From Candidatus Kaiserbacteria bacterium (GTDB lineage Bacteria; Patescibacteriota; Minisyncoccia; Phycocordibacterales; UBA2100), in NCBI GenBank assembly GCA_016217925.1, contig JACRFK010000003.1, forward strand, positions 143,656 to 207,655: a DNA stretch of 64,000 nucleotides. Direction: 5' to 3'. The notes beneath the pieces are model-generated. The model made no database searches. It was given only the letters and a program-made list of their open reading frames with translations, and had not been told where the DNA came from. The position numbers were made by a program, and so were the translations under genes. Shown piece by piece: positions 1,566 through 56,898 of the stretch. Each line of letters begins with the position of its first letter. Position 1 is the first letter of the stretch.

Positions 1566-1576
1566 CGCGAATTTGA

Positions 1577-1657
1577 CCCCGTTAGAGGCTCCGGACGCTG
1601 TGTGTATCTGGAACTATCGAACCCACGAGGTCTTTTCAGAGGCTGCCTCTAACGGGG
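1577..1657. repeat. Palindromic element, GTTAGAGG family: CCCCGTTAGAGGC, 55 nt, GCCTCTAACGGGG
   Basis: Exact 13-nt inverted arms at 1577-1589 and 1645-1657. The same arms recur at 14007-14035, and related arms at 15075-15105 and 52342-52425. Confidence 0.7.
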
Positions 1658-1685
1658 TTGACTTTTTCCCGACCCCGTTTATACT
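1658..1685 (+). promoter_or_regulatory. Sigma70-like promoter, TTGACT-16-TATACT, upstream of carA
   Basis: TTGACT at 1658-1663, 16-nt spacer, TATACT at 1680-1685. It lies about 100 nt upstream of the carA ATG and directly abuts the right arm of the palindromic element. Confidence 0.5.
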
Positions 1686-1789
1686 TACGTTTTAATGACC
1701 TCCAAGAAGTTTCCAACGACAAACACCCGCCCGGGTGTATTTTTATACCCTCACTCTCGACCCGCCTCTGGCGGGTCTTTTTCTAGCCT

Positions 1790-2860
1790 ATGAAATTGAT
1801 ACTCAAAGACGGTACGGTGTTCGAAGGGCAAAGCTTTGGTGCCCCCAAAAGTACCGCCGGCGAAGTGGTTTTTAATACCGGAATGACGGGATACGTCGAG
1901 AGCCTTTCTGACCCTTCGTACGCGGGACAAATCGTCGTCCTCACCTACCCGCTCGTGGGCAACTACGGCGTACCCGACAAGAAGTATTTTGAATCAAATA
2001 AGATGCAGATAGCGGGGCTAGTGGTCTCCGAATATTCGGAAAACTACTCACATCACGACGCAAAGGGGTCGCTCGCCGAGTGGCTCAAGTCTTCCGGCGT
2101 ACCCGCGATAACGGGCGTGGACACCCGCGCGCTCACCAAGCGCCTGCGCGAGCACGGGGTGATGTTAGGCGCGCTTAGCGTCAATCCCGCCAAGGGCGGG
2201 ACGAGGTTCACCGACCCAAATGACGAAAATCTCGTCGCCCGCGTGAGCATCAAAAAGAAAAAGACCTACGGCAACGGGCCGGTGAAAATAATCGCCGTTG
2301 ACTGCGGCATGAAAGAAAACATCGTTCGCGCGCTCACGCGACCCGAGACTACGGTCATCCGTGTACCGTGGGATTATGACTTCACCGAAGACAAGTACGA
2401 CGCGCTCTTTATTTCCAACGGCCCCGGCGACCCGACGCAATGCTGGATAACAATCGAACATATCAAGCACGCGATGTCTGCGGACAAGCCGATACTGGGG
2501 ATCTGCCTCGGTAATCAACTACTTGCACTCGCTGCAGGGGCAAAAACGTACAAGCTTAAGTACGGTCACAGAGGTCAAAACCAACCCTGCATAGATCTTG
2601 AGAACGGGCGCTGCTACATCACCTCACAAAATCACGGCTTCGCCGTGGACGGCAAAACACTCCCCGACGGATGGGGAGAATGGTTCGTGAATGCGAACGA
2701 CGGAAGCAACGAAGGTGTGCGGCACAAGACGAGGCCGTGGCGCTCGGTGCAATTCCACCCCGAAGCCTCCCCCGGACCCACCGACACCGCGTGGATATTC
2801 GATGAATTCATCGCCGCGTTGAGCAAGTCAGACCCGCACAAAAAGAAAACGTATGAATAA
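1790..2860 (+). CDS. carA: Carbamoyl-phosphate synthase small subunit (glutamine amidotransferase)
   Basis: 356 aa. CarA N-terminal domain, and GATase triad region GICLGNQLLALAAGAKTYKLKYGHRGQNQP. Confidence 0.9.
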   Translation: MKLILKDGTVFEGQSFGAPKSTAGEVVFNTGMTGYVESLSDPSYAGQIVVLTYPLVGNYGVPDKKYFESNKMQIAGLVVSEYSENYSHHDAKGSLAEWLKSSGVPAITGVDTRALTKRLREHGVMLGALSVNPAKGGTRFTDPNDENLVARVSIKKKKTYGNGPVKIIAVDCGMKENIVRALTRPETTVIRVPWDYDFTEDKYDALFISNGPGDPTQCWITIEHIKHAMSADKPILGICLGNQLLALAAGAKTYKLKYGHRGQNQPCIDLENGRCYITSQNHGFAVDGKTLPDGWGEWFVNANDGSNEGVRHKTRPWRSVQFHPEASPGPTDTAWIFDEFIAALSKSDPHKKKTYE

Positions 2861-5800
2861 AGTCCGCAAGGTGCTGCTGTTGGGTTCGGGGGGCCTTCGC
2901 ATCGGTCAGGCGGGTGAGTTTGATTACTCCGGCTCGCAGGCTATCAAGGCGCTCAAAGAGGAGGGTGTCAAAGTCGTACTGATGAATCCGAATATCGCAA
3001 CGGTGCAGACGGATGATAAGCTCGCGGACACCGTGTACTTTCTCCCCCTCACAGAACACTTCGCAACGCAGGTGATAAAGAAAGAAAAGCCCGATGCCAT
3101 ATTGCTCTCCTTCGGCGGGCAGACGGCTCTCAATCTCGGACTCTCGCTCGAAGAGCGCGGAGTCTTGAAAAAGTACAGCGTACGCGTACTCGGCACATCG
3201 GTCGCCACTATCCGCGACACCGAGGACCGCGAGCTATTTGTGCGACGTCTTTCGGAAATCGGTGTAAAGACCGCGCAAAGTCGGGCGACAGAAAATGTAC
3301 GAGACGCACTGAAAGCCGCGGGCGAGATAGGCTACCCGGTAATGATGCGTTCGGGCTTTGCACTCGGCGGTGAAGGGTCGGGAGTCGTTCACAACGAGAA
3401 GGAATTATCTGTGAAGCTAACGGAGGTGTTCAGGAACGTACCGCAGGTTCTCATCGAGGAAAACCTGAGCGGCTGGAAAGAGGTCGAATACGAAGTGGTG
3501 CGCGACCGCGCCGACAACTGCATCACGGTGTGCAATATGGAAAATCTCGATCCGATGGGCATTCATACAGGCGAGAGCATCGTCGTCGCGCCGTCGCAGA
3601 CGCTATCGAATGCCGAGTATCACGGACTTCGCGAGATAGCGATTAAAACGATACGCCACTTGGGAATTGTCGGAGAATGCAACATCCAGTATGCCCTTCA
3701 TCCGCAGACAGGTGACTACCGCGTCATCGAGGTGAACGCCCGCCTCTCGCGCTCTTCCGCGCTCGCATCGAAAGCCACAGGATATCCGCTCGCCTTCGTG
3801 GCCGCCAAGCTCGCGCTCGGATACAAGCTCACCGATATCAAGAATTCAGTCACTGGCAAAACGACTGCCTGCTTCGAGCCCGCACTCGATTACCTCGTCC
3901 TCAAAGCCCCACGCTGGGACCTGACAAAATTCGAGAACGCGGCACCTCGCATCGGTACCGAAATGAAAAGCGTCGGAGAGGTCATGGCCATTGGCCGCTC
4001 TTTCGAAGAAGTGCTGCAAAAAGCGCTTCGCATGCTCAACGTCGGCGTAGACGGATTCGTGCCCGCAAAAAACCCTTGTCCGAAAACCCGGTATTTGGAC
4101 GAAATACAGTACCCGACGACTCGTCGCATCTTTGCGCTCGCGGAAGCGCTGCACGACGGCGTCAATGTGGCCAAGCTGCACGACCTATCCAAAATTGACC
4201 CGTGGTTTCTGGAAAAGATGGGCAATATCGTCGGACTGGAACGTGAACTTAAGAGAAAGAAGTTGACCAAAGAGCTACTCGCACGCGCAAAACGCGCGGG
4301 ATTCTCCGATAAGCGCATTGGAACGTTGAAGAAAACGACTGAAGTGGCCGTCCGCTCTCTCCGCGCGCGCTTGCACGTGTTACCCGTCGTCAAACAGATA
4401 GACACACTTGCGGGTGAATTCCCCGCACAGACCAATTACCTGTACATGACCTACCACGGCACCGAAAACGATGTTGCGCGCGGAAAAAATCAGGTTGCCG
4501 TTTTGGGAAGCGGCCCGTATTGCATCGGCTCATCAGTCGAATTCGATTGGTCCTGCGTACAGGCGCTCAAAACTTTGAAGGCGGAAGGGCGCAACACCAT
4601 CATGATCAATTCCAACCCCGAGACCGTTTCGACCGATTACGACATGTCCGACCGGCTGTATTTCGAGGAACTTTCGCTTGAGCGCGTACTCGACATTGTC
4701 GATTTTGAGCGACCTCTCGGCGTCGTTATCTCAACCGGCGGCCAGATACCCAACAATCTCGCACTTCCGCTGCAGCGCAACAAGGTCAGAATTCTCGGCA
4801 CGGACCCGCAAAATATCAACCGTGCCGAAGACCGTCACGTATTCTCCAAATTGCTCGACGAGCTCGGTATTGACCAGCCCGAGTGGGCGGAACTCACCAC
4901 TCCCGCAGCAGCGGCGAAAGCGGCCGAGAAACTCGGCTACCCGGTCCTCGTGCGTCCCTCATACGTCCTCTCGGGTGCCGCGATGAAGGTGGCCTATGAT
5001 GAGAAATCTTTGCTTGAATTCCTTCAGCGCGCCGTTGACGTATCGTCCGACCACCCCGTTGTGATTTCAAAATTCATCGAGAACGCGCGCGAGATAGAAA
5101 TAGACGGCGTGGCACACAAGGGCGCGCTCGCAATCTACGCCATTACCGAACACATCGAAAATGCCGGCACGCACTCGGGCGACGCCACCGTGGTATTGCC
5201 GCCCCAGCGCACCTACCTCGAGACCATCCGGCGCGCCAAGCACATCACGAAGGATATTTTGAAGGCGCTGAAGATTACCGGCCCCTTCAATATGCAATTC
5301 ATCGCCAAAGACAATCACCTGCTTGTCATCGAGTGTAATCTGCGCGCCTCGCGCAGTTTCCCGTTCGTCTCAAAAGTGACGGGACACAATTTCATCAACC
5401 TCGCGGTACGCGCCATGCTAGGCAAAGATATCGCCGGCCACTATCGGACCGTCGAGCTTGATACCGTCGCCGTGAAATCGCCGCAATTTTCCTACGGCCG
5501 CATCAAGGGGGCCGACCCGCACACGAGCGTGGAGATGGCCTCGACTGGCGAAGTGGCGTGTTTCGGCGATTCCTATTCCGAGGCACTTCTCAAATCTATG
5601 ATGGCCGCGGGTTTCCGTTTGCCGAAGAAGAACGTACTTGTATCTCTCGGCAAAGAGGAGAATAAGATCAAGATGCTGCCGGCTGTAGCCGTGCTCGCCA
5701 ATATGGGATTCAAGCTCTACGCGACCGAGCACACGGCGGATTTTCTGCGCGAGAACAACATCCCGTGCGAGAAAGTCTATAAGATAAGTTCAAATATTGC

Positions 5801-6116
5801 GCCCAACGTCTCGGGGCTGTTCGAGGGCGGCGAGCTTGACCTCATCATCAACATCCCTACGAAGGGGCGCGAGAACACGACAGACGGCTTCACCATCCGC
5901 CGCAAGGCGATTGATATGAATATTCCGCTTATCACCAACCGCCAACTCGCCGAAGCCTTCATAACGGCGCTTGCGGAACAGAAAGCGGAGCGAAGCGGAG
6001 TCCCGCACCAAAAGCCAAAGAAGAAACACATTGGCACTTCAAAAGAGAATGGTAAGCTTTTTGGTGCTGGGAGATACGGACTGGAAGCGAAATCGTGGGA
6101 AGAATATCGTTCATAG
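2853..6116 (+). CDS. carB: Carbamoyl-phosphate synthase large subunit
   Basis: 1087 aa. Two ATP-grasp halves, oligomerisation domain and MGS-like domain. Start overlaps the carA stop by 8 nt. Confidence 0.95.
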   Translation: MNKVRKVLLLGSGGLRIGQAGEFDYSGSQAIKALKEEGVKVVLMNPNIATVQTDDKLADTVYFLPLTEHFATQVIKKEKPDAILLSFGGQTALNLGLSLEERGVLKKYSVRVLGTSVATIRDTEDRELFVRRLSEIGVKTAQSRATENVRDALKAAGEIGYPVMMRSGFALGGEGSGVVHNEKELSVKLTEVFRNVPQVLIEENLSGWKEVEYEVVRDRADNCITVCNMENLDPMGIHTGESIVVAPSQTLSNAEYHGLREIAIKTIRHLGIVGECNIQYALHPQTGDYRVIEVNARLSRSSALASKATGYPLAFVAAKLALGYKLTDIKNSVTGKTTACFEPALDYLVLKAPRWDLTKFENAAPRIGTEMKSVGEVMAIGRSFEEVLQKALRMLNVGVDGFVPAKNPCPKTRYLDEIQYPTTRRIFALAEALHDGVNVAKLHDLSKIDPWFLEKMGNIVGLERELKRKKLTKELLARAKRAGFSDKRIGTLKKTTEVAVRSLRARLHVLPVVKQIDTLAGEFPAQTNYLYMTYHGTENDVARGKNQVAVLGSGPYCIGSSVEFDWSCVQALKTLKAEGRNTIMINSNPETVSTDYDMSDRLYFEELSLERVLDIVDFERPLGVVISTGGQIPNNLALPLQRNKVRILGTDPQNINRAEDRHVFSKLLDELGIDQPEWAELTTPAAAAKAAEKLGYPVLVRPSYVLSGAAMKVAYDEKSLLEFLQRAVDVSSDHPVVISKFIENAREIEIDGVAHKGALAIYAITEHIENAGTHSGDATVVLPPQRTYLETIRRAKHITKDILKALKITGPFNMQFIAKDNHLLVIECNLRASRSFPFVSKVTGHNFINLAVRAMLGKDIAGHYRTVELDTVAVKSPQFSYGRIKGADPHTSVEMASTGEVACFGDSYSEALLKSMMAAGFRLPKKNVLVSLGKEENKIKMLPAVAVLANMGFKLYATEHTADFLRENNIPCEKVYKISSNIAPNVSGLFEGGELDLIINIPTKGRENTTDGFTIRRKAIDMNIPLITNRQLAEAFITALAEQKAERSGVPHQKPKKKHIGTSKENGKLFGAGRYGLEAKSWEEYRS

Positions 6117-6446
6117 AAAAGGAGCGGGAGGGGGGACGCGTGTTACCGACGCAATACAAAACGCAAAACTGATGAGTCCCCCTCCCTCTGCGCCTTTACG
6201 GCACAATCTCGCATTGGCGGATACCCTCAGGGTCCGCGACACAATGCGAACACGAACACAACGTACACAACTGACGCAACGCTACAACATCCCTTACTAG
6301 GGATCGCGGAGTGCGAAGTCCCCTTCGCTTCAACCGCCTCACGGATATTCCGGATTACGTCCGGAGGTCCGTGGAGTCCGCCGAAAGACTTAGCTGGGCA
6401 GCGAAGCTATCGACGGAGTGAAAGGTATGTATACATTATTTGGAGG

Positions 6447-6575
6447 ATTTCTTCAACATTCTCTTCAAATAGTACCCCGTGTGAGAGCCGTCGGTCTTTG
6501 AGACTTCTTGGGGTGTACTCTTAGCAACCAAGTGAGATGGTCGATACTTTGATAATGACACCATTTAGTTTGATG
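6447..6575 (-). pseudogene. Diverged duplicate of the uvrA 3' end (remnant ORF, 42 codons)
   Basis: Minus-strand translation is [42 protein letters not shown]. The real UvrA C-terminus, encoded at 7543-7640, is [32 protein letters not shown] 25-nt core gagccgtcggtctttgagacttctt is identical in both copies. Confidence 0.6.
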
Positions 6576-6631
6576 TAGAATATAAAAAGCAGCGCCGCTT
6601 TGCCTATGTTGGGGCAAAGCGGCGAGAGTTG

Positions 6632-7426
6632 CTACCAGAGCCTAGTAGCACCGATTTTCTTGAAGAACGCCTCTCTCGGGTCTTCCCGAGGTGGAGGTTC
6701 GCAGCCGAACGCAAATGCGACGTCTAGCCGATTCCACCAGGATTCCCGATTCACGTTGAGGCAGGTGAACATGTTATCGTAGAAGTCCGGCCCCCCGCCA
6801 CAGTATGTGTGCACTCCGATGGCTAGCACGACAAGCTGTTGCTCGGACAAAGGAAACGGGTCGTGGAACCCGGCAATTTTGGAACCGCTAAGGCCATAAC
6901 GCCCTGTCCCTATGATGCGTTCGACTTGGAACGGCATCAATTGATGACGTAGACGCGGCATGATGCCTGCGGGAAGTTTCTTGTAGCCAAAGTTATCCAC
7001 GGCAGCCTCCACGCAGGAGAAATCGGACTTGTCGTTCGAAGTCTCTTTGCATGGAATGTCTGCGCCGGGGACAATCGCTATGTAATAATCCTTCCCCGGC
7101 TCCAAGATATGCCCGCCGTTGCTCAAGTGACGTTCGAGCGCATGTTGAGCATAGCTATCAGCCCTTTCTTTTGGGGCGTATCCGGCGGCTCGGAGGAGTT
7201 CTAGCTCCTTTGCTCCGTCAAGACCGAGGCCTCTGACGGTCAACATGAGATGCCCGTGTTCGTTATATTCGAACATCGACGGACCCCAGCAGGGTTGGCG
7301 TTTGACGAACTTCTTCAATTCCGTAAGTGCCTCCTCGCCGTCGTCTGCGGCGAGAAGATCGTCAAGGGCGCCTTTCGGTCCGCGCACTCGGCGGAGCGAA
7401 AGTGTTCCGAGCATACCTTTCGGCAT
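6632..7426 (-). CDS. Hypothetical protein, 264 aa, no recognisable domain
   Basis: Intact ORF. Consensus SD AAGGAG sits 7 nt upstream of the ATG. Extended -10 promoter lies immediately after the uvrA stop. The gene sits between the duplicated uvrA 3' ends. Confidence 0.6.
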   Translation of the reverse strand: MPKGMLGTLSLRRVRGPKGALDDLLAADDGEEALTELKKFVKRQPCWGPSMFEYNEHGHLMLTVRGLGLDGAKELELLRAAGYAPKERADSYAQHALERHLSNGGHILEPGKDYYIAIVPGADIPCKETSNDKSDFSCVEAAVDNFGYKKLPAGIMPRLRHQLMPFQVERIIGTGRYGLSGSKIAGFHDPFPLSEQQLVVLAIGVHTYCGGGPDFYDNMFTCLNVNRESWWNRLDVAFAFGCEPPPREDPREAFFKKIGATRLW

Positions 7427-7500
7427 GGTCGTTCTCCTTGTTTTGATTTCAACGAGCGGTCATGAAATGCGAGCGAATCTCGAATCCCACCGCAACGGTG

Positions 7501-7530
7501 CATTATATCATGATGTCATAAAAAAGCAAG
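7501..7530 (-). promoter_or_regulatory. Sigma70-like promoter TTGCTT-N17-TGaTATAAT for the 264-aa gene
   Basis: Reverse complement reads cttgcttttttatgacatcatgatataatg. It begins right after the uvrA stop codon at 7543-7545. Confidence 0.55.
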
Positions 7531-7542
7531 AGCTTCACAAGT

Positions 7543-10287
7543 TTATTTAATCATCCTTTTCTTCAATGTGCGTTTCAAGTAGTATCCCGTATGCGAGCCG
7601 TCGGTCTTTGAGACTTCTTCGGGTGTGCCCTTTGCTACGATTTTTCCGCCTCCTGCTCCCCCTTCGGGCCCCATGTCGATGATGTAATCGGCGCATTTCA
7701 AGACGTCGAGATTGTGCTCGATAGCTATCACGGTATTGCCGCGTTCGACAAGCTTCTGGAGAATATCTACAAGCTTTGCGACGTCGTCATAGTGGAGTCC
7801 GACCGTCGGCTCGTCGAGCAGGTAGACGCTTTTTGTAATGAGCGGACGGTAGAGCTCGGACGCGATTTTCACGCGCTGCGCTTCTCCGCCGGAGAGCGTC
7901 GTCGCACTTTGACCGAGTTCCAGATATCCGAGCCCGACGTCAATAAGGCTTTGCATTCTATCGGATACCGCAGGTATATCTTCGAAAAACGCGTACGCTT
8001 CCTCGACGGTCATGGAGAGCACATCGTGAATACTCTTTTTCTTGTACTTCACTTCGAGCGTCTCCTTCATAAAGCGCTTCCCGTTGCACACATCGCAGGT
8101 CACGTACACGGTCGGCAAAAAGTGCATCTCGACTGCGACAAGCCCATTGCCTTGGCATGCCTCGCACCGTCCGCCTTTCACGTTGAAAGAGAAGCGCCCG
8201 GGCCCCCAACCGCGCGCCCGCGCCTCTTCGCTCATGGCAAACATGTCGCGGATATGTGTCCACGCCCCCGTGTAGGTCGCTGGATTGCTGCGCGGGGTGC
8301 GGCCGATTGCGGATTGGTCTATCAAAATCGCCCGCCCGAGGTACTCGGTGCCCGAGAATTCTTTTGCGTTGTAGATTTTGGCGGTGCGATATCGTTTGTC
8401 GAAACGCGCCTGCAAATTGCGGTGAAGGATTTCGTAGAGAAATGTAGACTTTCCCGAGCCGGAAACACCCGAAACAACGACAAACTTTCCGAGCGGTACA
8501 TCCACGTTGAGATTTTCGATATTGAACTTCCCCGCGCCGCGTATTTTGATCTTGCCTCGGTCGGCGGTACGTCGCGTTTCGGGAATCTCAATCCTTATTT
8601 CATCCCTCAAATATTGCAACGTCCGTGAGACGTGCGCGCCTGCCCCGTAGGAAGCTTTGCTTTCCTTCGGGGAGCCGGATTTGTTGGTTTTAGCGGTGAG
8701 CAAGTCTTCAAGCCACCCATCCACAACCACTTCCCCGCCGTGTACGCCCGCACCGGGGCCGAGGTCAACGATGTAATCCGAAGCAAAAATGGTGTCTTCG
8801 TCGTGTTCAACGACGAGAACGGTGTTGCCGAGGTCGCGTAAGTGTTTCAACGTCTCGATGAGCTTGTCGTTGTCGCGCTGATGCAAGCCGATTGTCGGCT
8901 CGTCGAGCACATAGAGCGCGCCCACAAGCCCCGAGCCGAGCTGTGAGGCAAGCCGGATGCGTTGCGCCTCACCGCCCGACAAGGTATTCGCCTTTCTATC
9001 CAGCGTCAGGTATTCGATGCCCACATTGAGCATGAACTGCAGGCGCGAAGTTATCTCCTTGATGACAACGCGGGAAATGTCTTGTTCTTTTTTCGTGAGT
9101 TTCAGTTTGTTGAAAAAGTCCATCGCATCTTCGATTGAAAGGGACGAGAGATGTACGATGTTCATGCCCGTGGCCGGACCGTCGTTACTCTCCGGTTGCT
9201 TCACGTGTCCGAGAAATACATTTAGTGTTTCCGGTCGAAGACGCGCGCCCTCACAGACGTCGCATGCCTCATCGCCAAAGAAATATTTCGTCCCCAACCC
9301 TTTGCACTCCGGGCACGCGCCGTAGGGTGAGTTGAAGGAGAAGAGGCGCGGTTCAATTTCAGGAAATGAAAAGCTGTCGTACGGACACATGAATTTGGCC
9401 GAGACGATACGGGACTCCCCCGCCGCGTCGGTAATTTTTACCAATCCTTCGCTCTCGTGCAGCGCGCGCTCGATAGCCTCCGATGCGCGCTCATGCGCGG
9501 CTTTGGCGTCGTCCGCAAATTCAGAGACGAATATTTCGTCAACGACAATATCAATGTCGTGCTTGAAATGCTTCTTGAGGTCGACGCGCTCGCGGAGTGA
9601 CTTTTCCTCACCGTCTATAACGGCCTTCTCGTACCCTTTGTTGAGCATGTCGTAAAGGAGCTGGTAGTATTCTCCTTTCCGACCAACTACCACGGGAGAC
9701 GATATCCGTATCTTCGCTCCTGAAACTCCCGCTGTCAGCTTTCCTTTTCCCCGAGAACCGACCTCTGTGCTTTTCCCCGAGGTCGGTTCTCTGTGCTTTC
9801 GAGCCGCTTCGACGATGGAAAGCACCGATTCCAGTATCTCTTCGTTGGAAAGTTTGCGGACCTCACGGCCGCAAATCGTGCAGTGCGGCTTGCCCACACG
9901 CGCGTACAGCACGCGGAGGTAGTCGTAAATCTCGGTGATGGTCGCGACCGTCGAGCGCGGGTTGTTGGAGCGGGATTTTTGGTCTATTGAAATTGCGGGT
10001 GAAAGTCCCGTTATCTCGTCCACATCGGGCTTTTGCATTTGGCGTAAAAACTGCCTTGCGTATGCGGAAAGCGATTCCACGTACTTGCGCTGGCCCTCGG
10101 CAAAAATGGTATCAAAAGCAAGCGAAGACTTCCCGCTTCCGGAAAGCCCCGTGAAAACGACCATCTTGTTGCGTGGTATCTCAACACTGATGTTCTTCAG
10201 GTTGTGTGTCCGCGCCCCTTTGATGACGATTTTACCTGCCCCGACCGTAGCGTCGGGGTCTGAACCTTGTCTTCTTGAATTTGGCAT
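7543..10287 (-). CDS. uvrA: Excinuclease ABC subunit A
   Basis: Two ABC ATPase modules with zinc-finger insertions and conserved UvrA blocks throughout. The listed ORF extends to 10473, but the conserved N-terminus begins at MPNSRRQG...[15 protein letters not shown], so the start is probably near 10287. Confidence 0.9.
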
Positions 10288-10400
10288 ATATAGTTCCGAC
10301 CCCCGCTTTGCGCTAGGGGTTAGTATGGGGGATTGTATCAGAAACAGGAAGGGACCGCGATGTGCGGCCCCACTCCACTTTTCATTCTCCGACGCGGCGA

Positions 10401-10763
10401 TCATTCCGGCGTGGACAGCGCAAGCTTGTGCCACGGGATGACGTGACTTCTTCCACGCAGGAAGACGATGCATCCTTCCTCGCCTTCGTGATAGTTGCGC
10501 CGGCGATGTTCGTAGTCCTCCCGGTCGGGCACCCTCCCGACGAGAGCGGCCGGAAAATTTTCGTGCATGTACAGCAGATAGACTTTCTCGCCGTACGGCG
10601 GTCCATCCGAGCCCGTAAGGGCACGGGGGTCCGAAGGCGGGGGCGTAAATCGATAGTCGGCCGCACTGCGATTCCTTGCTGCACGACGACCGCGACCCGA
10701 ACGTCCGGCATCCGCATAGAAGTTACCCAAACCTGTCGATCTTCTCATGACACAACCCTCCAA
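10401..10763 (-). CDS. Hypothetical small protein, about 120 aa, Arg-rich N-terminus
   Basis: GGAGGG sits 7 nt upstream of the ATG at 10763. It lies downstream of the terminator of the 335-aa gene. An extended -10 TGaTACAAT for uvrA lies beyond it. Sequence is GC-rich and shows no recognisable domain. Confidence 0.35.
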
Positions 10764-10827
10764 GTCGCTCCATGCGACTGAACCGTAAGCACCCTACAAT
10801 AAGATGAACTCCCCGTAAAGGGAGTAG

Positions 10828-10873
10828 TAAATTGAAAACGAAACGGCGGCGGACCCCACGAGGGTCCACCGCC
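10828..10873 (-). terminator. Intrinsic terminator after the 335-aa gene
   Basis: GC-rich hairpin ggcggtggaccc / gggtccgccgcc, followed on the minus strand by GTTTCGTTTTC. Confidence 0.45.
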
Positions 10874-10932
10874 AGTTGCCAGTTGATTGAAGATCAGTTT
10901 TTTGTAGCTCCCGCAAGATGGGGCGACCCCAT

Positions 10933-11940
10933 TCACAGGTCGCGCTCCCTTGCCTTAGGATTTTGCGTAACACCGCCGGAGTGTCCAATGGTGCCAAGAC
11001 GCTCATAGTCGAGAGTGTCAAGATCCACGGGAACAAACACTCCATACTTGTCGATGAACGCATCGATCAGCTGCAAGGCTTGGGTGCAGCTTGCCGTCAT
11101 CCTGTAAATCTGGAAATTGCGGGCCTCCAGATCGGCGGCATCGCCGACGAAGATGATTTGCTTCATCGGCACGAGCGGCCATTGCAACCGCCGCCACCAG
11201 GACATGAATTTCCCGCGGAATCCTTTGGGAATTTCATTCTTGGATAGAGATGCCTTTTCAGGGGCTAAAGGCCATTGCAACTGGCGTCGCCAATGGAACT
11301 TCAGCCCCACGTCGGTTCCGTTCGGCCCGCCCTGCTTCACATGAAGCCGGGCGAACCCTGCGTAGTAGATCTTGTCGTTCAGGCCAGCAGCAACAACTGC
11401 ATGTCGCATCTGCGGGTAGACGAGCAAGGCAAAGTCGCTGAACCGATTTCTCAAGACGAAATCCTCAGCGAAGATTTGAGCCCTGAAAGTCGCGGCAAGT
11501 TTCCCAGGACCCGCCGCCCACTCGATGATGCGACAAAGCATTTCGGCATCTTCGACGCGATATTCGTCGCCTTGCACCGCGGTGACACTGGCTGGTTTTC
11601 GACCCATCCAGTGCCGGAAGCTAACGCGGTAGTCGACCGACTCCTTGGCGGGACTTGTGAGCAAACACCTCCAAATATAAAGAATCTGGGATGTGAAGTG
11701 TCTGAAGAAGTCGTCGCCGGTGAAGTCGGGGGTTGCGCGAAGTCGGATGGCCTGCGAAAGGCGGTCCCGAATTGCCGTCGCCGTGATACGTTGGATCGCA
11801 ACTTTGGCGACATATTCGGGGCCGGTTAAACAAGCCGGTGTTGACGACGTTTCGTAGAACTTTGCTTGGATGGCTTCAGCGAAACCGGACGACGAAGTGA
11901 TTGGCCCTTTCGCCAGATCCCTCATTAGGTTTTGAATCAT
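10933..11940 (-). CDS. Hypothetical protein, 335 aa, with an internal tandem duplication (possible R-x4-H motif, unverified)
   Basis: No recognisable family. The protein repeat WRRQLQWPLAPEK... / WRRLQWPLVPMK is encoded by a 93-nt tandem duplication at 11177-11310. It has its own consensus promoter and terminator. Confidence 0.6.
   Translation of the reverse strand: MIQNLMRDLAKGPITSSSGFAEAIQAKFYETSSTPACLTGPEYVAKVAIQRITATAIRDRLSQAIRLRATPDFTGDDFFRHFTSQILYIWRCLLTSPAKESVDYRVSFRHWMGRKPASVTAVQGDEYRVEDAEMLCRIIEWAAGPGKLAATFRAQIFAEDFVLRNRFSDFALLVYPQMRHAVVAAGLNDKIYYAGFARLHVKQGGPNGTDVGLKFHWRRQLQWPLAPEKASLSKNEIPKGFRGKFMSWWRRLQWPLVPMKQIIFVGDAADLEARNFQIYRMTASCTQALQLIDAFIDKYGVFVPVDLDTLDYERLGTIGHSGGVTQNPKARERDL
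11177..11310. repeat. 93-nt intragenic tandem duplication, 1.4 copies
   Basis: ggccattgcaaccgccgccaccagg... is repeated as ggccattgcaactggcgtcgccaatgg... Confidence 0.6.
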
Positions 11941-12027
11941 AGCCCCTTGTTTCCTCTACTGGGGTTGCACTGATTGTGGGCTACGCACTCACGCTTACTG
12001 TTACGCTACACTACAATATTAACAGCT

Positions 12028-12059
12028 AGTATAATGCCTCTTTAAAGCTCATTTGTCAA
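12028..12059 (-). promoter_or_regulatory. Sigma70 consensus promoter, TTGACA-18-ATTATA, for the 335-aa gene
   Basis: Reverse complement reads ttgacaaatgagctttaaagaggcattatact. It lies in the 125-nt gap between the murB stop and the gene start. Confidence 0.5.
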
Positions 12060-12065
12060 CTTCGG

Positions 12066-12986
12066 TCAGAGGACAGCGGCTTCCTCGTGAAGCTCGACGC
12101 CAAATTGCGATTTGACCGCCTCTTTTACCTCTTCCGCAAGCTGTCTGACATTCTCAGCCGTGGCATTTCTTTGGTTCACGAGGTAATTTGGATGTTGGAG
12201 CGATGCTATTGCGCCGCCTACCGTCGCGCCTTTCATGCCCGCCTTTTCGATAAGCCAACCCGCGGGGACTCTTCCCTCGCGGGATTTCGTCTGCTTTTCA
12301 CGCTCGAACATTGCGACGATTTCCGCGGGCGCCGTGGGATTCATAAAGTAGGAACCAGCAGCACGCACATTCTGCAAATGCCGTCTTTCCCGCTCTGCAA
12401 TAGTTTCGTCGGCGAGTTTTGCGCTCACTGTGGGGTCAACTTTTTCAAGGCGGATAAAGACGCGTGTGATTATCCATTCCGGATGGTCTTTGAAAAAGCT
12501 GTGGCGATATGAAAAATCACATTCTTGATTCACAAAATCTTTTATCTCGCCTGTTTCGGAATTGAGTGCACGTACATTTGTCACAAAATCTTTTATCTCC
12601 GGCCCGAACGCTCCCGCATTGCCGCGCACCGCCCCCCCGATAGTGCCCGGAATACCCGCGAGCTTCTCCCATCCACCCCAGCCCTGGGCACCAAGAGCCC
12701 GCATCGCCGAGAGGAGATTCGTCCCCGCCCACGAATCCACAGCGCCATTGTTGCAAGCATACAGGTCACCGCGAAGCCTCACGACGAGCGCGTCGATTCC
12801 TTCGTCGGGTATGAGCACGTTGCTCCCGCCGCCGAGAATTACAACTCTGAGTTTATTGTCTGCCGCCCACGCGAGCGCCTCGCGGATATCCGCCTCCGTG
12901 CGCACGCTCAGCAAATATTTTGCAGGCCCCCCAATCTCAAAAGTTGTAAGGGAAGCAAGTAGGACGTTTTCTTTGACCTTCTGCAT
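12066..12986 (-). CDS. murB: UDP-N-acetylenolpyruvoylglucosamine reductase
   Basis: FAD-binding MurB N-terminus LLASLTTFEIGGPAKYLL and C-terminal domain. The start MQKVKEN lies 1 nt after the uvrB stop, so the two are probably co-transcribed. Confidence 0.85.
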   Translation of the reverse strand: MQKVKENVLLASLTTFEIGGPAKYLLSVRTEADIREALAWAADNKLRVVILGGGSNVLIPDEGIDALVVRLRGDLYACNNGAVDSWAGTNLLSAMRALGAQGWGGWEKLAGIPGTIGGAVRGNAGAFGPEIKDFVTNVRALNSETGEIKDFVNQECDFSYRHSFFKDHPEWIITRVFIRLEKVDPTVSAKLADETIAERERRHLQNVRAAGSYFMNPTAPAEIVAMFEREKQTKSREGRVPAGWLIEKAGMKGATVGGAIASLQHPNYLVNQRNATAENVRQLAEEVKEAVKSQFGVELHEEAAVL

Positions 12987-12987
12987 A

Positions 12988-15051
12988 TTATTTCTTCTTT
13001 CTGTTTTTCTCCTCCAGCTTCTGTATTTCATCACGAATAAGCGCGGCTGTCTCGAAATCAAGTTTGTCAGCCGCTTCGTGCATCTGATTGCGCTTGTCTT
13101 TTATGAGCTTCCTGATGTCCCCTCCGTATGCAGCTTTATCCATCTCCGCAAGCTCGCTCACCGCGCGCTTGCGGCTTCGCTCGATGTCGCCAACGATGTC
13201 GTGAATGCGTTTCTCTATCGTCTTCGGCGTGATGTGATGTTTTTTGTTGTACGCCTCCTGTATCGCACGCCGCCTGTTGGTCTCGCCTATCGCACGCCCC
13301 AAGGAGCCCGTCATCAGATCGGCGTAAAGAATGACGCGGCCCCTGACGTTCCTCGCCGCGCGACCGATAGTCTGGATGAGCGAAGTGTCACTGCGCAAAA
13401 ATCCCTCTTTATCAGCGTCTAGAATTGCGACCAGTTCGACTTCCGGCAGGTCCAAGCCTTCACGCAACAAGTTCACGCCGACGAGCACGTCGAAGGTTCC
13501 TTTGCGGAAATCGGTAAGGATTTCGATGCGGTCAATAGTTTTCACATCACTGTGCACGTAGCGTGCTTTTATTTTCTTCTCGACGAGGAACTGCGTGAGG
13601 TCTTCCGCCATCTTTTTGGTCAGCACCGTCACCATGGAGCGCGCACCGCTTTTCGTCACCGCTTCGGCTTCTGCAATAAAATCTTTGACCTGCCCTTCAT
13701 AATCCGTGCCACTTACGATGGGGCGGACGACAATTTGCGGATCGACGAGGCCCGTCGGGCGGATCACCTGGGAAATCGGCTCGCCGCTGTGTTCGAGCTC
13801 AAATTTGCCCGGAGTCGCCGAGGTGTAGATGGTTTGTCCTGTGCGCTCCTGAAATTCAGCAAAGTTGAGCGGACGGTTGTCGACGGCACTCGGAAGCCGG
13901 AAACCGTGTTCGACGAGCGTATCCTTGCGCGCCCGATCTCCCGCATACATACCACCGATCTGCGAGACGGTCACGTGCGATTCGTCAATGACGGTGAGGA
14001 AACCTGCCCCGTTAGAGGCGATGCCTCTAACGGGGTCCGGAAATAACTTTGCACAGGCGTGAAAGTAATCAATCAAGGTATACGGCGGCTCCCCGGGCTT
14101 TCGCCTGTCGAAATGACGCGAGTAGTTCTCGATACCGTTGCAAAATCCGAATTCGCGTATCATCCCTATGTCCTGGCGCGTGCGACGTTTGAGACGCTCA
14201 GCTTCAAGGATTTTCCCTTCGCCGTTGAATTTCTTAAGTTGTTCCGCAAGTTCAATTTCAATATCCGCAAGCGCCGCCTCCAACACATCTTTGGGGGTTA
14301 CGTACTGACGTGCGGGAAAAATAAACATTGCATCGTGCTTCGCACCCAGTTTGCGCGTCATCGCGTCCACTTCCTCGATTTTCGCGATTTTTCCGCCCGT
14401 GAGGTCGACGCGGTAGATGACGCGTTCGCTCGCGGGCATGATCTCAACGGTAGCGCCAAGCGCACGAAATGTCCCCGGCGAAAGCTCGCCCGCGGTGCGC
14501 TCGAAATAGATAGAGACGAGTTTGCGCGACAGGTGGCTGCGCGTCATCTGTTCGCCCTTCGTCAGTTTGAGATTTACTTTTTGATATTCGATAGGGCTGC
14601 CTAAACCGTAGATGCAGGAGACGGATGCGACGACGATGACGTCCTTGCGCGTGAGGAGGGCCTGTGTCGCTGCGTGCCGCAGGCGTTCGATGTCTTCATT
14701 TATCATCGCTTCCTTCTCGATATACGTATCAGTAACCGGCATGTACGCTTCCGGCTGGTAGTAATCGTAGTAGGAGACGAAATAATGCACCGCGGCGTCG
14801 GGAAAGAAATCGCGGTACTCGGCGGCGAGCTGCGCCGCGAGTGTTTTGTTGTGCGCGATGACGAGCGTCGGTCTCTGCACTTTTTCAACGACATTGGCAA
14901 TGGTGAAGGTCTTGCCGGAACCTGTAACCCCCAAAAGCGTCTGGTCACGTGTACCCGTTTTCAGACTTTTTACGAGCGCAGAAATAGCCTCCGGCTGATC
15001 GCCGCCAGGCCGATAGTCGCTTTTTAGCTTGAATACGCCGCCTGATTTCAT
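12988..15051 (-). CDS. uvrB: Excinuclease ABC subunit B
   Basis: Helicase motifs (GVTGSGKTFT, DESHVT) and a C-terminal UvrB/UvrC interaction coil. Start is taken as ATG MKSGGVF at 15049-15051. The stop of the upstream uORF overlaps this ATG. Confidence 0.9.
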   Translation of the reverse strand: MKSGGVFKLKSDYRPGGDQPEAISALVKSLKTGTRDQTLLGVTGSGKTFTIANVVEKVQRPTLVIAHNKTLAAQLAAEYRDFFPDAAVHYFVSYYDYYQPEAYMPVTDTYIEKEAMINEDIERLRHAATQALLTRKDVIVVASVSCIYGLGSPIEYQKVNLKLTKGEQMTRSHLSRKLVSIYFERTAGELSPGTFRALGATVEIMPASERVIYRVDLTGGKIAKIEEVDAMTRKLGAKHDAMFIFPARQYVTPKDVLEAALADIEIELAEQLKKFNGEGKILEAERLKRRTRQDIGMIREFGFCNGIENYSRHFDRRKPGEPPYTLIDYFHACAKLFPDPVRGIASNGAGFLTVIDESHVTVSQIGGMYAGDRARKDTLVEHGFRLPSAVDNRPLNFAEFQERTGQTIYTSATPGKFELEHSGEPISQVIRPTGLVDPQIVVRPIVSGTDYEGQVKDFIAEAEAVTKSGARSMVTVLTKKMAEDLTQFLVEKKIKARYVHSDVKTIDRIEILTDFRKGTFDVLVGVNLLREGLDLPEVELVAILDADKEGFLRSDTSLIQTIGRAARNVRGRVILYADLMTGSLGRAIGETNRRRAIQEAYNKKHHITPKTIEKRIHDIVGDIERSRKRAVSELAEMDKAAYGGDIRKLIKDKRNQMHEAADKLDFETAALIRDEIQKLEEKNRKKK
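14007..14035. repeat. Perfect 29-nt palindrome CCCCGTTAGAGGC-GAT-GCCTCTAACGGGG inside the uvrB coding sequence
   Basis: It encodes DPVRGIASNG in frame. It lies within a roughly 17-aa insertion relative to E. coli UvrB (recalled from memory), between the conserved LIDY and VIDESH blocks. Confidence 0.7.
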
Positions 15052-15149
15052 ACACAACAATGAAATGAGTCCCGCCCCGTAGGAAGCTGCGCTTTCCTAC
15101 CGGGGTCGCCGGCGGGCTTGTAGGCCGCCTTCAGTTTGAACTTACTCAT
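15048..15149 (-). CDS. uORF or leader peptide, 33 aa, MSKFKLKAAYKPAGDPGRKAQLPTGRDSFHCCV, coupled to uvrB
   Basis: The N-terminus mimics the UvrB N-terminus FKLKSDYRPGGDQ. The TGA stop overlaps the uvrB ATG as ATGA. It contains the palindrome at 15075-15105. Confidence 0.5.
   Translation of the reverse strand: MSKFKLKAAYKPAGDPGRKAQLPTGRDSFHCCV
15075..15105. repeat. Palindrome CCCCGTAGGAAGC-TGCGC-TTTCCTACCGGGG, a diverged member of the GTTAGAGG family
   Basis: Inverted arms lie within the uvrB leader uORF. Confidence 0.5.
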
Positions 15150-56698: not shown

Positions 56699-56795
56699 AA
56701 AAATAGCAAAACTGTTAAAAGGTTGCTAATGCACTAAGCCTACCCCCGCAGCGTTTCCTGTCCAGCGCCCCCCGTCGCACAAAAATCATTCTAAC

Positions 56796-56821
56796 GTTTT
56801 GCAAAACGTTAGAACGTTGTG
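56796..56821. promoter_or_regulatory. Perfect 26-nt palindrome TTCTAACGTTTTGCAAAACGTTAGAA, a candidate operator
   Basis: Exact dyad symmetry. The half-site contains CGTTAGAA, which recurs in the GTTAGA palindromic family. It lies about 100 nt upstream of the 56698 gene start. Confidence 0.4.
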
Positions 56822-56898
56822 GGGGTACTGGGGGGATTGGGTAGAGATGCCTCAACAGCCAGTGAAGCGTTTGGCGGGCCTGCCTGCGCAGGCAGGGC

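Follow-up and report, generated by a model that had tools for sequence, protein, structure and literature searches.

A 29-bp palindrome inside uvrB of a Candidatus Kaiserbacteria bacterium as a probable copy of a non-autonomous, MITE-like element

Palindromic repeats located in coding sequences have hitherto been treated as a peculiarity of Rickettsia. In the summary of Ogata et al. (2000 and 2002) given in PMC10969869, the RPEs are about 150 bp long, fall into ten families and are confined to this genus. Here we describe the same behaviour in a far smaller element, a palindrome located in the uvrB gene of a Candidatus Kaiserbacteria bacterium, within a 64-kb stretch of DNA referred to below as the window. 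As RPEs are portrayed in that summary, they share with the family of the uvrB palindrome a palindromic structure, many copies per genome, a large proportion of copies lying in frame in unrelated housekeeping genes and read through as an extra peptide, and the lack of a transposase of their own. The family differs from them in its size (29-87 bp), in its clear 4-bp target duplication and in having a single 13-bp end sequence common to five or more phyla. The preliminary description of this DNA had called the insertion RPE-style. The term is apt for a dispersed family with target-site duplications that often lies in frame in housekeeping genes, but the uvrB palindrome, which acts like an RPE, falls outside the RPE families, as judged by size and host descriptions.

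Other described systems resemble the family in part. MITEs (Correia, QMITE, Chunjie and others; PMC10969869) also present terminal inverted repeats, flanking target repeats, no coding capacity, size variants and repeats that decay with age. The smallest MITE size quoted in this review is 39 bp, for QMITE1 fragments, and the family differs in that it reaches 29 bp, is GC-rich instead of AT-rich, shows a strong length bias that keeps the reading frame, is conserved across phyla and has no known parent IS. REP/BIME sequences, associated with RAYTs, are likewise short (20-40 bp) hairpin-forming palindromes with many copies. They are, however, extragenic, tagged with GTAG or CGTC (the tag as given in PMC3733652), tied to a Y1 transposase gene and devoid of target duplication, and none of these four features fits the uvrB-palindrome family. 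Palindromic elements derived from IS200/IS605 (PATE type) use a fixed tetra- or pentanucleotide and produce no target duplication, whereas the tetranucleotide duplicated in our family is variable. By analogy only, inteins are also selfish in-frame insertions in essential genes, often those of DNA replication or repair; they encode splicing and often homing functions and leave the protein, while the uvrB element encodes nothing and appears to be retained in it. The IS1380 family and piggyBac-type transposons generate a 4-bp target duplication favouring T...A and have ends beginning with CC(C), in resemblance to the uvrB-palindrome family. In contrast, none of their transposases was found near any copy, and the target of the family is YNNR, not TTAA.

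The palindrome in uvrB and its host loop

The product of the window uvrB was 100% identical to a Candidatus Kaiserbacteria protein named excinuclease ABC subunit UvrB. The palindrome that it contains (Table 1) reads CCCCGTTAGAGGC GAT GCCTCTAACGGGG, with the two 13-nt arms 100% complementary to each other and 3 nt between them, and its ends are CCCCGTTAG... and ...CTAACGGGG. It had been presented as a perfect 29-nt palindrome, which applies to the arms; because the central triplet is not self-complementary, the sequence is strictly a palindrome of the 13+3+13 hairpin type. By our own arithmetic, chance would produce about 0.007 perfect 13-bp stems with a 2-8 nt loop in 64 kb, and the window contained only two such stems, the uvrB palindrome and another resembling the tyrS terminator. 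The predicted folding energy of the uvrB palindrome was -16 kcal/mol as DNA (z = -7.3) and -27.7 kcal/mol as RNA (z = -5.6). On the coding strand it is read in frame as GA/C CCC GTT AGA GGC ATC GCC TCT AAC GGG G/CA, where the slashes mark the ends of the element, giving D P V R G I A S N G A. This codon reading of the minus-strand ORF confirmed that uvrB carries an in-frame palindrome encoding DPVRGIASNG.

Table 1. Features of the window that relate to the uvrB palindrome and to the second member of its family
Feature	Position	Strand	Remarks
uvrB host gene	12988..15060	-	ORF; start of database protein at 15051
20-codon loop HACAKLFPDPVRGIASNGAG	14002..14061	-	Between DYF and FLTVIDESH (helicase motif II)
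Minimal 29-bp element	14007..14035	.	13-bp terminal inverted repeats CCCCGTTAGAGGC / GCCTCTAACGGGG with 3-nt spacer
Left flank CGGA (coding strand)	14036..14039	-	Fits YNNR; presumed left duplication copy, since diverged
Right flank CAGG (coding strand)	14003..14006	-	Fits YNNR; presumed right duplication copy
Patch grouping the window with the L002 lineage, against its own clade	14003..14073 (minimal)	-	Likely recombination tract carrying the insert
Second family member	1577..1657	.	Same two 13-bp arms around a 55-nt structured core
TTGA, left target-site duplication copy (4 bp) of the second member	1573..1576	+	
TTGA, right duplication copy of the second member	1658..1661	+	Also begins the carA -35-like hexamer TTGACT

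When UvrB was aligned with solved UvrB chains (best match 9gy7_E), a 17-residue gap appeared exactly between LIDYF and FL..IDESH, in agreement with the earlier claim that the segment between LIDY and VIDESH is about 17 aa longer. Of the 17 additional residues, the element and its duplication (29 nt plus 4 nt, that is, 33 nt) supply only 11, while the remaining six or so are, from the sequence comparison, an older loop expansion; the 20-codon loop of the window accordingly comprises about 9 codons of older loop and 11 codons of element and duplication. This older loop is present without the palindrome in relatives such as P0050 (KSCGGKEG). Loop length is in fact variable among the UvrBs of Kaiserbacteria (PKD, PKNADGTPN, SPPAGG, KSCGGKEG and others). 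The preliminary description had also proposed a lineage-specific insertion and had pointed to close relatives as the place to look for a loop of the same length. The orthologue comparison upheld the proposal, since the nearest UvrB homologues (88-93% identical) showed the short loop YFPKDFLTV and lacked the insert. A protein search with the 75-aa loop region for further insert-bearing UvrBs returned only short fragments, all of them without the insert. The AlphaFold model of UvrB had a mean pLDDT of 66, with residues 336-349 below 50 and low values in their neighbours, and was too poor for placing the loop, for which a surface position had been presumed.

A dispersed family with 4-bp target-site duplications

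Four copies of palindromic elements were present in the window (1577-1657, 8643-8673, 14007-14035 and 15075-15105), all of them in or beside uvrC, uvrA and uvrB. The copy in uvrA and the one upstream of uvrB belong to a sequence family that differs from that of the uvrB palindrome. In contrast, the element at 1577-1657, which is intergenic and lies between the uvrC start and the carA promoter, contains the identical arm 13-mers, for which the chance expectation was about 0.002 per arm. With the Rfam 15 covariance models, nothing except one tRNA scored above threshold anywhere in the window, and no match over 1577-1657 was obtained at a permissive threshold.

Exact-arm scans returned at least 120 matches in a collection of species-representative genomes and at least 120 in a metagenome collection; because these scans accepted exact arms only, part of the uniformity seen across the family stems from the search itself. 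The hosts among the matches listed were Patescibacteria, Omnitrophota, Planctomycetota, Nitrospirota and Betaproteobacteria, with a host GC content of 37 to 68%, and one MAG carried the element at 10 loci or more. All 250 copies analysed were bounded by the same arms, had a total length of 29-87 bp and contained no transposase gene of their own. Exact 4-bp direct repeats flanked 140 of them, compared to 5 of 250 in a control that used tetramers displaced by 4 nt, while 5-bp repeats were found in none of the 126 copies checked at that width. The repeat consensus was YNNR, which the flanks fitted in 93% of cases versus 32% in the control, and the duplicated tetranucleotide was variable (TCAA, TGAA, TAAA, TCCA, CAAG and others). 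The flanks of the uvrB copy, CGGA and CAGG, differ at two of four positions and do not form an intact duplication.

The length of the element was biased towards keeping the reading frame. The spacer was a multiple of three in about 90% of the short forms and 75% of the long forms, with a sharp peak at 3 nt (about 68 of 126 copies), and the spacer triplet varied between copies, even inside one MAG. About 40% of the copies (55 of 122 short and 41 of 126 long) were located inside ORFs of at least 150 aa, and all but one of these had a length divisible by three. In the 96 host ORFs that read through it, the element would be translated as PVRG-x-ASNG or PLEA-x-PLTG. The intragenic hosts are ordinary housekeeping proteins, including DnaE, UvrD, UvrA, LigA, SecA and GatB; two of the UvrD hosts also contain inteins. 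Orthologue alignments revealed clean filled and empty sites in ComEC, DnaE, UvrD and UvrB. One site in TsaD was occupied in two genomes, once by a 29-nt and once by a 50-nt form, each with its own perfect duplication (TTGA and TAGA). In the cores of the long forms, paired positions changed on both sides and G-T pairs were almost absent. Four features by which MITEs are recognised were present in the family: terminal inverted repeats, target duplication, a small size without a transposase gene, and occurrence at many unrelated sites with empty counterparts.

In about 1.7 Mb of flanks fetched around the copies, we found neither a transposase nor a full-length parent element bearing these ends. 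Pairs of arms lying 100-5000 bp apart with matching flanks proved to be only separate or tandem small elements, and clustering of the ORFs from all fetched loci showed that the shared proteins were housekeeping proteins. A Xer-like tyrosine recombinase was located 0.1-6 kb from the element in 7 loci; the mutual identity of these proteins was only 29-47% and they were judged to be ordinary XerC/D. Two other candidates were rejected. The motif GTTAGAG resembles the GTTRRRY of integron attC sites, but the arm order is the reverse of that in attC, and the GATGAG flanks that had suggested a hammerhead ribozyme were tandem heptamers in one MAG. The exact-pattern scan of IMG/VR gave 0 matches, and BLAST with a 58-nt consensus yielded no phage match and, in plasmids, only chance matches of 26 nt. 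A full-text literature search for the arm sequence retrieved unrelated primer matches only, and in the literature on palindromic elements and MITEs in CPR, Patescibacteria and groundwater we found no publication describing the family.

Spread of the insert among Kaiserbacteria

The sequence patch that holds the insert had a discordant phylogeny. Eight informative sites in the 18 nt beside it joined the window to L002, a related contig, against the window's own clade, and the breakpoints of this patch were placed within about 13994-14003 and 14073-14094. The insert-bearing patch, about 90 nt long, was shared by three distinct clades of Kaiserbacteria, a distribution that suggests spread by recombination. 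Between the window and L001, all 29 nt of the element were identical, while only 43% of the codons for the same amino acid were identical elsewhere in uvrB; at that level, such identity has a chance of about 1e-4. The L002 copy presented a compensated change, from G:C to C:G, that retained the two-fold symmetry. Neither this change nor the identity with L001 is predicted by simple neutral decay, and both point to constraint, to self-correction of the palindrome or to recent transfer.

Origin of the palindrome and competing explanations

We propose that the uvrB palindrome represents one copy of a mobile element that is MITE-like and non-autonomous and whose smallest form consists of two 13-bp terminal inverted repeats and a 3-nt spacer, a reading to which we assign a probability of about 0.78. 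It builds on the family membership, the duplications, the in-frame read-through, the filled and empty orthologue sites and the discordant phylogeny of the patch. Judging from the behaviour of its members, the family would insert at YNNR tetranucleotides and duplicate them, suggesting that an enzyme provided in trans makes a cut with a 4-nt stagger. One copy would have entered the variable UvrB loop, immediately ahead of helicase motif II, in an ancestor of certain Kaiserbacteria. As 29 + 4 = 33 nt, the insertion preserves the reading frame; moreover, the arms are free of stops in two of the three frames and the palindrome reads identically in both orientations, so uvrB stays open and gains the 11 residues (D)PVRGIASNGA. 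The insert-bearing segment of about 90 nt may later have been exchanged among Kaiserbacteria lineages by short-tract homologous recombination. The element most likely has no function in UvrB and would be a tolerated passenger.

Against this reading stand the failure to find a transposase or full-length parent in the fetched flanks, the broken duplication around the uvrB copy, and the identity with L001 and compensated L002 change that simple neutral decay does not predict. The stiffness of DNA also counts against a mobile element of this size, as a duplex of 29 bp lacks the length needed for looping into the usual paired-end transposition complex. If its two ends cannot meet by looping, the 29-bp forms might be immobile, and only longer forms (50-80 bp or more) would transpose, the copies with a 3-nt spacer, including that of uvrB, having arisen in place by loss of the core. 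The variation of the spacer triplet, even in one MAG, which a master-copy model does not predict, and the single TsaD site where two genomes carry forms of different length (29 and 50 nt) are in line with this possibility. We nevertheless regard it as unlikely, since the different TsaD duplications point to separate insertions, the 3-nt class forms a sharp peak instead of a spread of remnant sizes and, to our knowledge, no mechanism is known that removes a hairpin loop while leaving both arms exact. It is markedly less probable that the palindrome is of the REP type and that a Y1 (HUH) transposase of the RAYT or IS200-IS605 kind mobilised it in single-stranded form. Its 29-nt, near-perfect hairpin does fall inside the REP size range of 20-40 bp, L002 carries a PF01797 Y1_Tnp gene some 3 kb away from uvrB, and changes on both sides of the paired core positions of long forms, with almost no G-T, are expected of DNA hairpins on both strands. 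Y1 transposases such as those of IS608 and ISDra2, however, insert beside a fixed tetranucleotide and produce no duplication, unlike the variable 4-bp direct repeats that flank most copies. The ends of the element also lack a GTAG or CGTC tag, roughly two fifths of the copies are intragenic and not extragenic, no element copies lie beside the Y1 gene of L002, and tblastn with the L002 Y1_Tnp protein found no Y1 gene in the window (nothing better than E = 2).

The position of all four window palindromic copies in or beside uvrC, uvrA and uvrB could also suggest a functional cis-element of nucleotide-excision-repair genes, for example a hairpin in the mRNA that adjusts uvr expression or an operator bound by a dimeric regulator, for which mobility would be secondary or absent. 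Such a role would be consistent with a nucleotide conservation between the window and L001 that exceeds what the protein requires, and with the compensated L002 change that preserves the two-fold symmetry. It is very improbable given that the same arms recur at over 240 further sites, within unrelated genes and among phyla whose host GC ranges from 37 to 68%, and that other copies show variable 4-bp duplications and clean empty orthologue sites. In addition, the nearest UvrB relatives have no palindrome, and two of the four window copies, in uvrA and upstream of uvrB, come from another sequence family. As for an ordinary lineage-specific expansion of the UvrB loop, palindromic by accident and generated by local slippage or template switching, the variable loop length among Kaiserbacteria UvrBs would agree with it, but we consider it refuted by the recurrence of the 13-mer of both arms elsewhere in the window, against a chance expectation of some 0.002 per arm, and at hundreds of unrelated loci.

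Beyond the proposal that the uvrB palindrome is a copy of a mobile element, we tentatively raise a broader idea, which we hold to be somewhat less probable than its opposite: that the copies represent an undescribed multi-phylum family of transposable elements, at 29 bp the smallest observed so far, and seemingly shaped for survival inside genes by a length that with the duplication is a multiple of three, by arms free of stops in two frames in both orientations and by loop peptides rich in Pro, Gly, Ser and Asn. Such elements may move as a DNA hairpin or cruciform, not as a looped duplex, and may spread between lineages together with their flanks by recombination inside conserved genes. One end sequence is common to Patescibacteria, Omnitrophota, Planctomycetota, Nitrospirota and Proteobacteria from groundwater and sediments. 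Should this be confirmed, the family would set a new lower size limit for mobile DNA, and one would have to ask how an element of only 29 bp can be recognised and mobilised. Organisms with reduced genomes would have in it a concrete source of the loop insertions in their essential proteins. The family could also serve as a marker for tracing DNA exchange among co-occurring phyla, and the PVRG-x-ASNG and PLEA-x-PLTG peptides as an annotation marker for such insertions. In the UvrB of the window, the predicted peptides that carry insert-derived residues include LFPDPVR and GIASNGAGFLTVIDESHVTVSQIGGMYAGDR.

The uvrB palindrome among UvrB homologues

The product of the ORF that hosts the palindrome was 100% identical to a Candidatus Kaiserbacteria excinuclease ABC subunit UvrB (376-kb contig), and the element, read along the coding strand, gives D-P-V-R-G-I-A-S-N-G-A. 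Predicted folding energies were -16 kcal/mol for DNA (z = -7.3) and -27.7 kcal/mol for RNA (z = -5.6). Alignment with solved UvrB chains left a 17-residue gap bordered precisely by LIDYF on one side and by FL..IDESH (helicase motif II) on the other; the AlphaFold model (mean pLDDT 66) was too weak to call this loop exposed. The preliminary description of a 29-nt palindrome, in frame, encoding DPVRGIASNG in a segment about 17 residues longer, was correct.

Coordinates of palindromic elements and associated features (window positions, or fetched loci with L-numbers)
Feature	Location	Strand	Sequence or remark
uvrB host ORF	12988..15060	minus	
uvrB palindrome	14007-14035		CCCCGTTAGAGGC-GAT-GCCTCTAACGGGG; 13-nt arms fully complementary, spacer 3 nt
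Exact 13-mers near carA	1577-1589; 1645-1657	+; -	55-nt core
carA promoter-like site	1658-1685		TTGACT, 16 nt, TATACT
uvrA	7543..10473	minus	
UvrA insert	8629-8673	minus	contains CCCCGTAGGAAGC ttt GCTTTCCTTCGGGG; right flank GGGGCAGG
Hairpin upstream of uvrB	15075-15105		CCCCGTAGGAAGC
Long intergenic palindrome	56768-56835		core TTCTAACGTTTT gc AAAACGTTAGAA
Y1_Tnp gene (PF01797)	L002:6278-6922		
Variant or longer elements	L047:4704-4927; L057:6197-6260; L092:3840-3964		arms CCCCGTTAGAAGC(C)
ComEC carrying an intact 50-nt element	L013:4062-5576		PVRGRGTLRALAASNGV
ComEC carrying a diverged remnant	L062:5448-6920		RQGSKTLSFPVAFSA
UvrD/PcrA with intein	L061:142-3525; L122:1754-4915		
Element within CCGCCGATGRA context	L015, L037, L059, L064, L070, L086, L090, L105, L112		

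Comparison of the best 120 homologues revealed that the insert is lineage-specific. The nearest proteins (P0002-P0005, 88-93% identical) had the short YFPKDFLTV, as did most Kaiserbacteria, and only P0006 (FHACAKLFPDPLRGVASKGVGFLTV) and P0038 (FKKCGELFADPVRGIASNGAGFLTV) had the insert in common with the window; a second protein search for insert-bearing UvrBs returned fragments only. Since P0050 (DYFKSCGGKEGFLTV) and similar relatives presented a loop of 8 residues with no palindrome, the 17 extra residues have two sources: about 6 derive from an older expansion, and the other 11 codons correspond to the 29-nt element plus 4 nt.

The insertion point and its degenerate flanks (CGGA ... CAGG or TAGG) were the same in the window and in the loci encoding P0038 (L001) and P0006 (L002), indicating one insertion event ancestral to the three copies. 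In a loop-masked tree, the three insert-bearing proteins were placed in three different clades, with insert-free nearest members. At 8 positions within the 18 nt directly upstream of the insert, the window grouped with L002 against its own clade, and clade-typical sites were back ~60 nt upstream and ~40 nt downstream. The simplest reading is that a ~90-nt patch carrying the insert moved between lineages via homologous recombination. The 29 nt did not differ at all between the window and L001, whereas elsewhere in the gene just 43% of codons for the same amino acid were identical (chance of ten identical codons, about 2e-4). In L002, a G-to-C change was matched by a C-to-G change, so that the palindrome stayed perfect, and L003, encoding P0053, had an apparent decayed copy at the same place. 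This combination of conservation, compensated change and decay suggests a hairpin constraint, a palindrome that corrects itself, or a recent transfer. The insert is probably carried by UvrB as a neutral passenger.

A dispersed family with duplicated targets

The palindrome in uvrB belongs to a widespread family of elements. Its earlier interpretation as an in-frame coding insertion in the style of Rickettsia palindromic elements was essentially right, given the insert-free nearest homologues and the dispersed family, and the finding is larger than was then supposed. In the window, the exact 13-mer recurred in both orientations in the stretch from the uvrC start to the carA promoter, enclosing a core, and TTGA flanks this element on either side; the matching L001 region was ~79 nt shorter and did not contain it. 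The -35 box of the sole promoter-like site upstream of carA begins exactly at the right TTGA copy, so the insertion rebuilt this box rather than displacing it.

Species-representative genomes, one for each species, gave at least 120 matches when scanned for the two exact arms separated by 0-30 nt. Among the matches listed were Patescibacteria (Saccharibacteria, Kaiser-, Yanofsky-, Nomura-, Giovannonibacteria and others), Omnitrophota, Planctomycetota, Nitrospirota, Beta- and Gammaproteobacteria, and MAGs labelled Streptomycetaceae whose neighbour genes look proteobacterial. A single MAG accounted for 10 or more loci. Metagenomes scanned for spacers of 31-61 nt also gave at least 120 matches, and the GC content of host loci ranged from 37 to 68%. 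Exact 4-bp direct repeats flanked 140 out of 250 pooled copies, compared to 5 out of 250 for tetramers displaced by 4 nt, while none of 126 copies inspected for 5-bp repeats had one. The consensus YNNR fitted 93% of flanks versus 32% in the control, the most frequent duplications being TCAA/TTGA, TGAA/TTCA and TAAA/TTTA. Such repeats are what transposition leaves behind when the target is cut with a 4-nt stagger.

Variant arms and longer elements of 125-224 bp were also seen, so the family is broader than exact-arm scans show; the L092 variant had a 5-bp flank repeat, TATGA. In high-GC proteobacterial MAGs, the 29-bp element recurred inside CCGCCGATGRA [element] TGRACGCCGAT, which suggests nesting inside another repeat.

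Reading frames and copies inside host genes

Spacer lengths had two peaks, one at 3 nt, which gives the 29-bp element, and one at 24 nt, which gives a 50-bp element whose core is conserved. They were divisible by three in ~90% of short and ~75% of long forms. Because 26 + 4 = 30, insertion with such a spacer preserves the reading frame. Stop codons in the arms (TAG or TAA) were confined to one frame, and the palindrome reads the same whichever its orientation. Long-form cores (36-45 nt) comprised a pair of short inner hairpins. When 24 distinct copies were aligned, the first of these showed pairing-preserving changes on both sides at 7 out of 7 pairs, with G-T pairs very scarce. Such paired changes suit DNA hairpins formable on either strand, could alternatively come from palindrome-correcting template switching, and fit RNA structure less well.

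Copies were considered intragenic when the ORF had 150 aa or more and extended 30 aa or more beyond the element in both directions; 55 out of 122 short and 41 out of 126 long copies qualified. All but one had lengths divisible by three, and the peptide read was PVRG-x-ASNG or PLEA-x-PLTG. The 96 host ORFs matched 170 Pfam families. According to Pfam the hosts are ordinary proteins, among them DnaE, UvrD (two, both with inteins), UvrA, LigA, RarA, DinB, HsdM and ComEC, as well as ClpB, SecA, RNase J, TsaD, GatB, YchF, MurD-like ligase, MurG, glycosyltransferases and others. Proteins of DNA replication and repair appear over-represented, making up about a fifth of the hosts. The two UvrD/PcrA helicases combined an intein (Intein_splicing, Hint) with an in-frame element, at differing positions.

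DnaE presented three separate insertion sites in three genomes. TsaD was hit at one site by the 29-nt form in one genome and the 50-nt form in another, each with its own perfect duplication (TTGA, TAGA), indicating independent insertions. An 18-residue insertion in the ComEC of L062 was absent from its L013 orthologue, and at a second site the intact element of L013 faced a diverged remnant in L062, so copies decay into ordinary protein sequence.

Mobilisation, known elements and other palindromes of the window

At the sequence level, these comparisons establish an element with inverted-repeat ends that duplicates a variable YNNR target, is read through in frame, inserts independently and decays in place. 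An enzyme supplied in trans would make the 4-nt staggered cut. As a duplex of only 29 bp cannot bend so that its two ends meet, they are probably recognised next to each other on a hairpin or cruciform, or else by a dimer that covers the palindrome in full. IS1380/piggyBac-type elements, with 4-bp T...A duplications and CCC ends, appear to resemble the family. No transposase and no parent element with these ends was found in ~1.7 Mb of fetched flanks, and searches of plasmid, phage and viral collections and of Rfam found nothing.

By structure, MITEs are small elements that end in inverted repeats and lie between direct repeats (PMC10969869); the element has this structure, but a known parent IS is missing. 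Rickettsia palindromic elements, ~150 bp long in ten families, often lie in frame in genes (PMC10969869); our element behaves alike, yet is not one of them. The extragenic location, GTAG or CGTC tag and associated Y1 gene of REP/RAYT systems are absent from it, and REP/RAYT lack the target duplication that it has. A Y1 transposase is an unlikely mover: Y1 enzymes are not known to duplicate their targets, as happens with the element, and the window has no Y1 gene. One Y1_Tnp gene lies in L002, ~3 kb upstream of the uvrB bearing the variant palindrome CCCCCTTAGAGGC, with no element copies flanking it. We found no open-access text printing the arm sequence or describing such a family in these phyla. 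This mobile element, very small, widespread and coding-tolerant, appears to be undescribed so far.

UvrA of the window carries an in-frame 15-residue insert, which its L001, L002 and L004 orthologues do not have. Within it lies an imperfect palindrome that belongs to a second family of sequences; the right flank is the same as that of the uvrB element. The 13-mer of this second family recurs ahead of uvrB, in an imperfect hairpin located 15-45 nt upstream of its start, and was found in 0 out of 247 fetched loci. Four copies of palindromic elements were seen in the 64-kb window, all of them in or beside uvrC, uvrA and uvrB, genes that cluster within 15 kb (1577-15105); the elements may have hopped locally or may favour DNA-repair genes, or the pattern may be due to chance. 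Elsewhere in the window, a long imperfect intergenic palindrome carries the motif TCTAACG / CGTTAGA of the uvrB element's family, with its arms in the opposite order.
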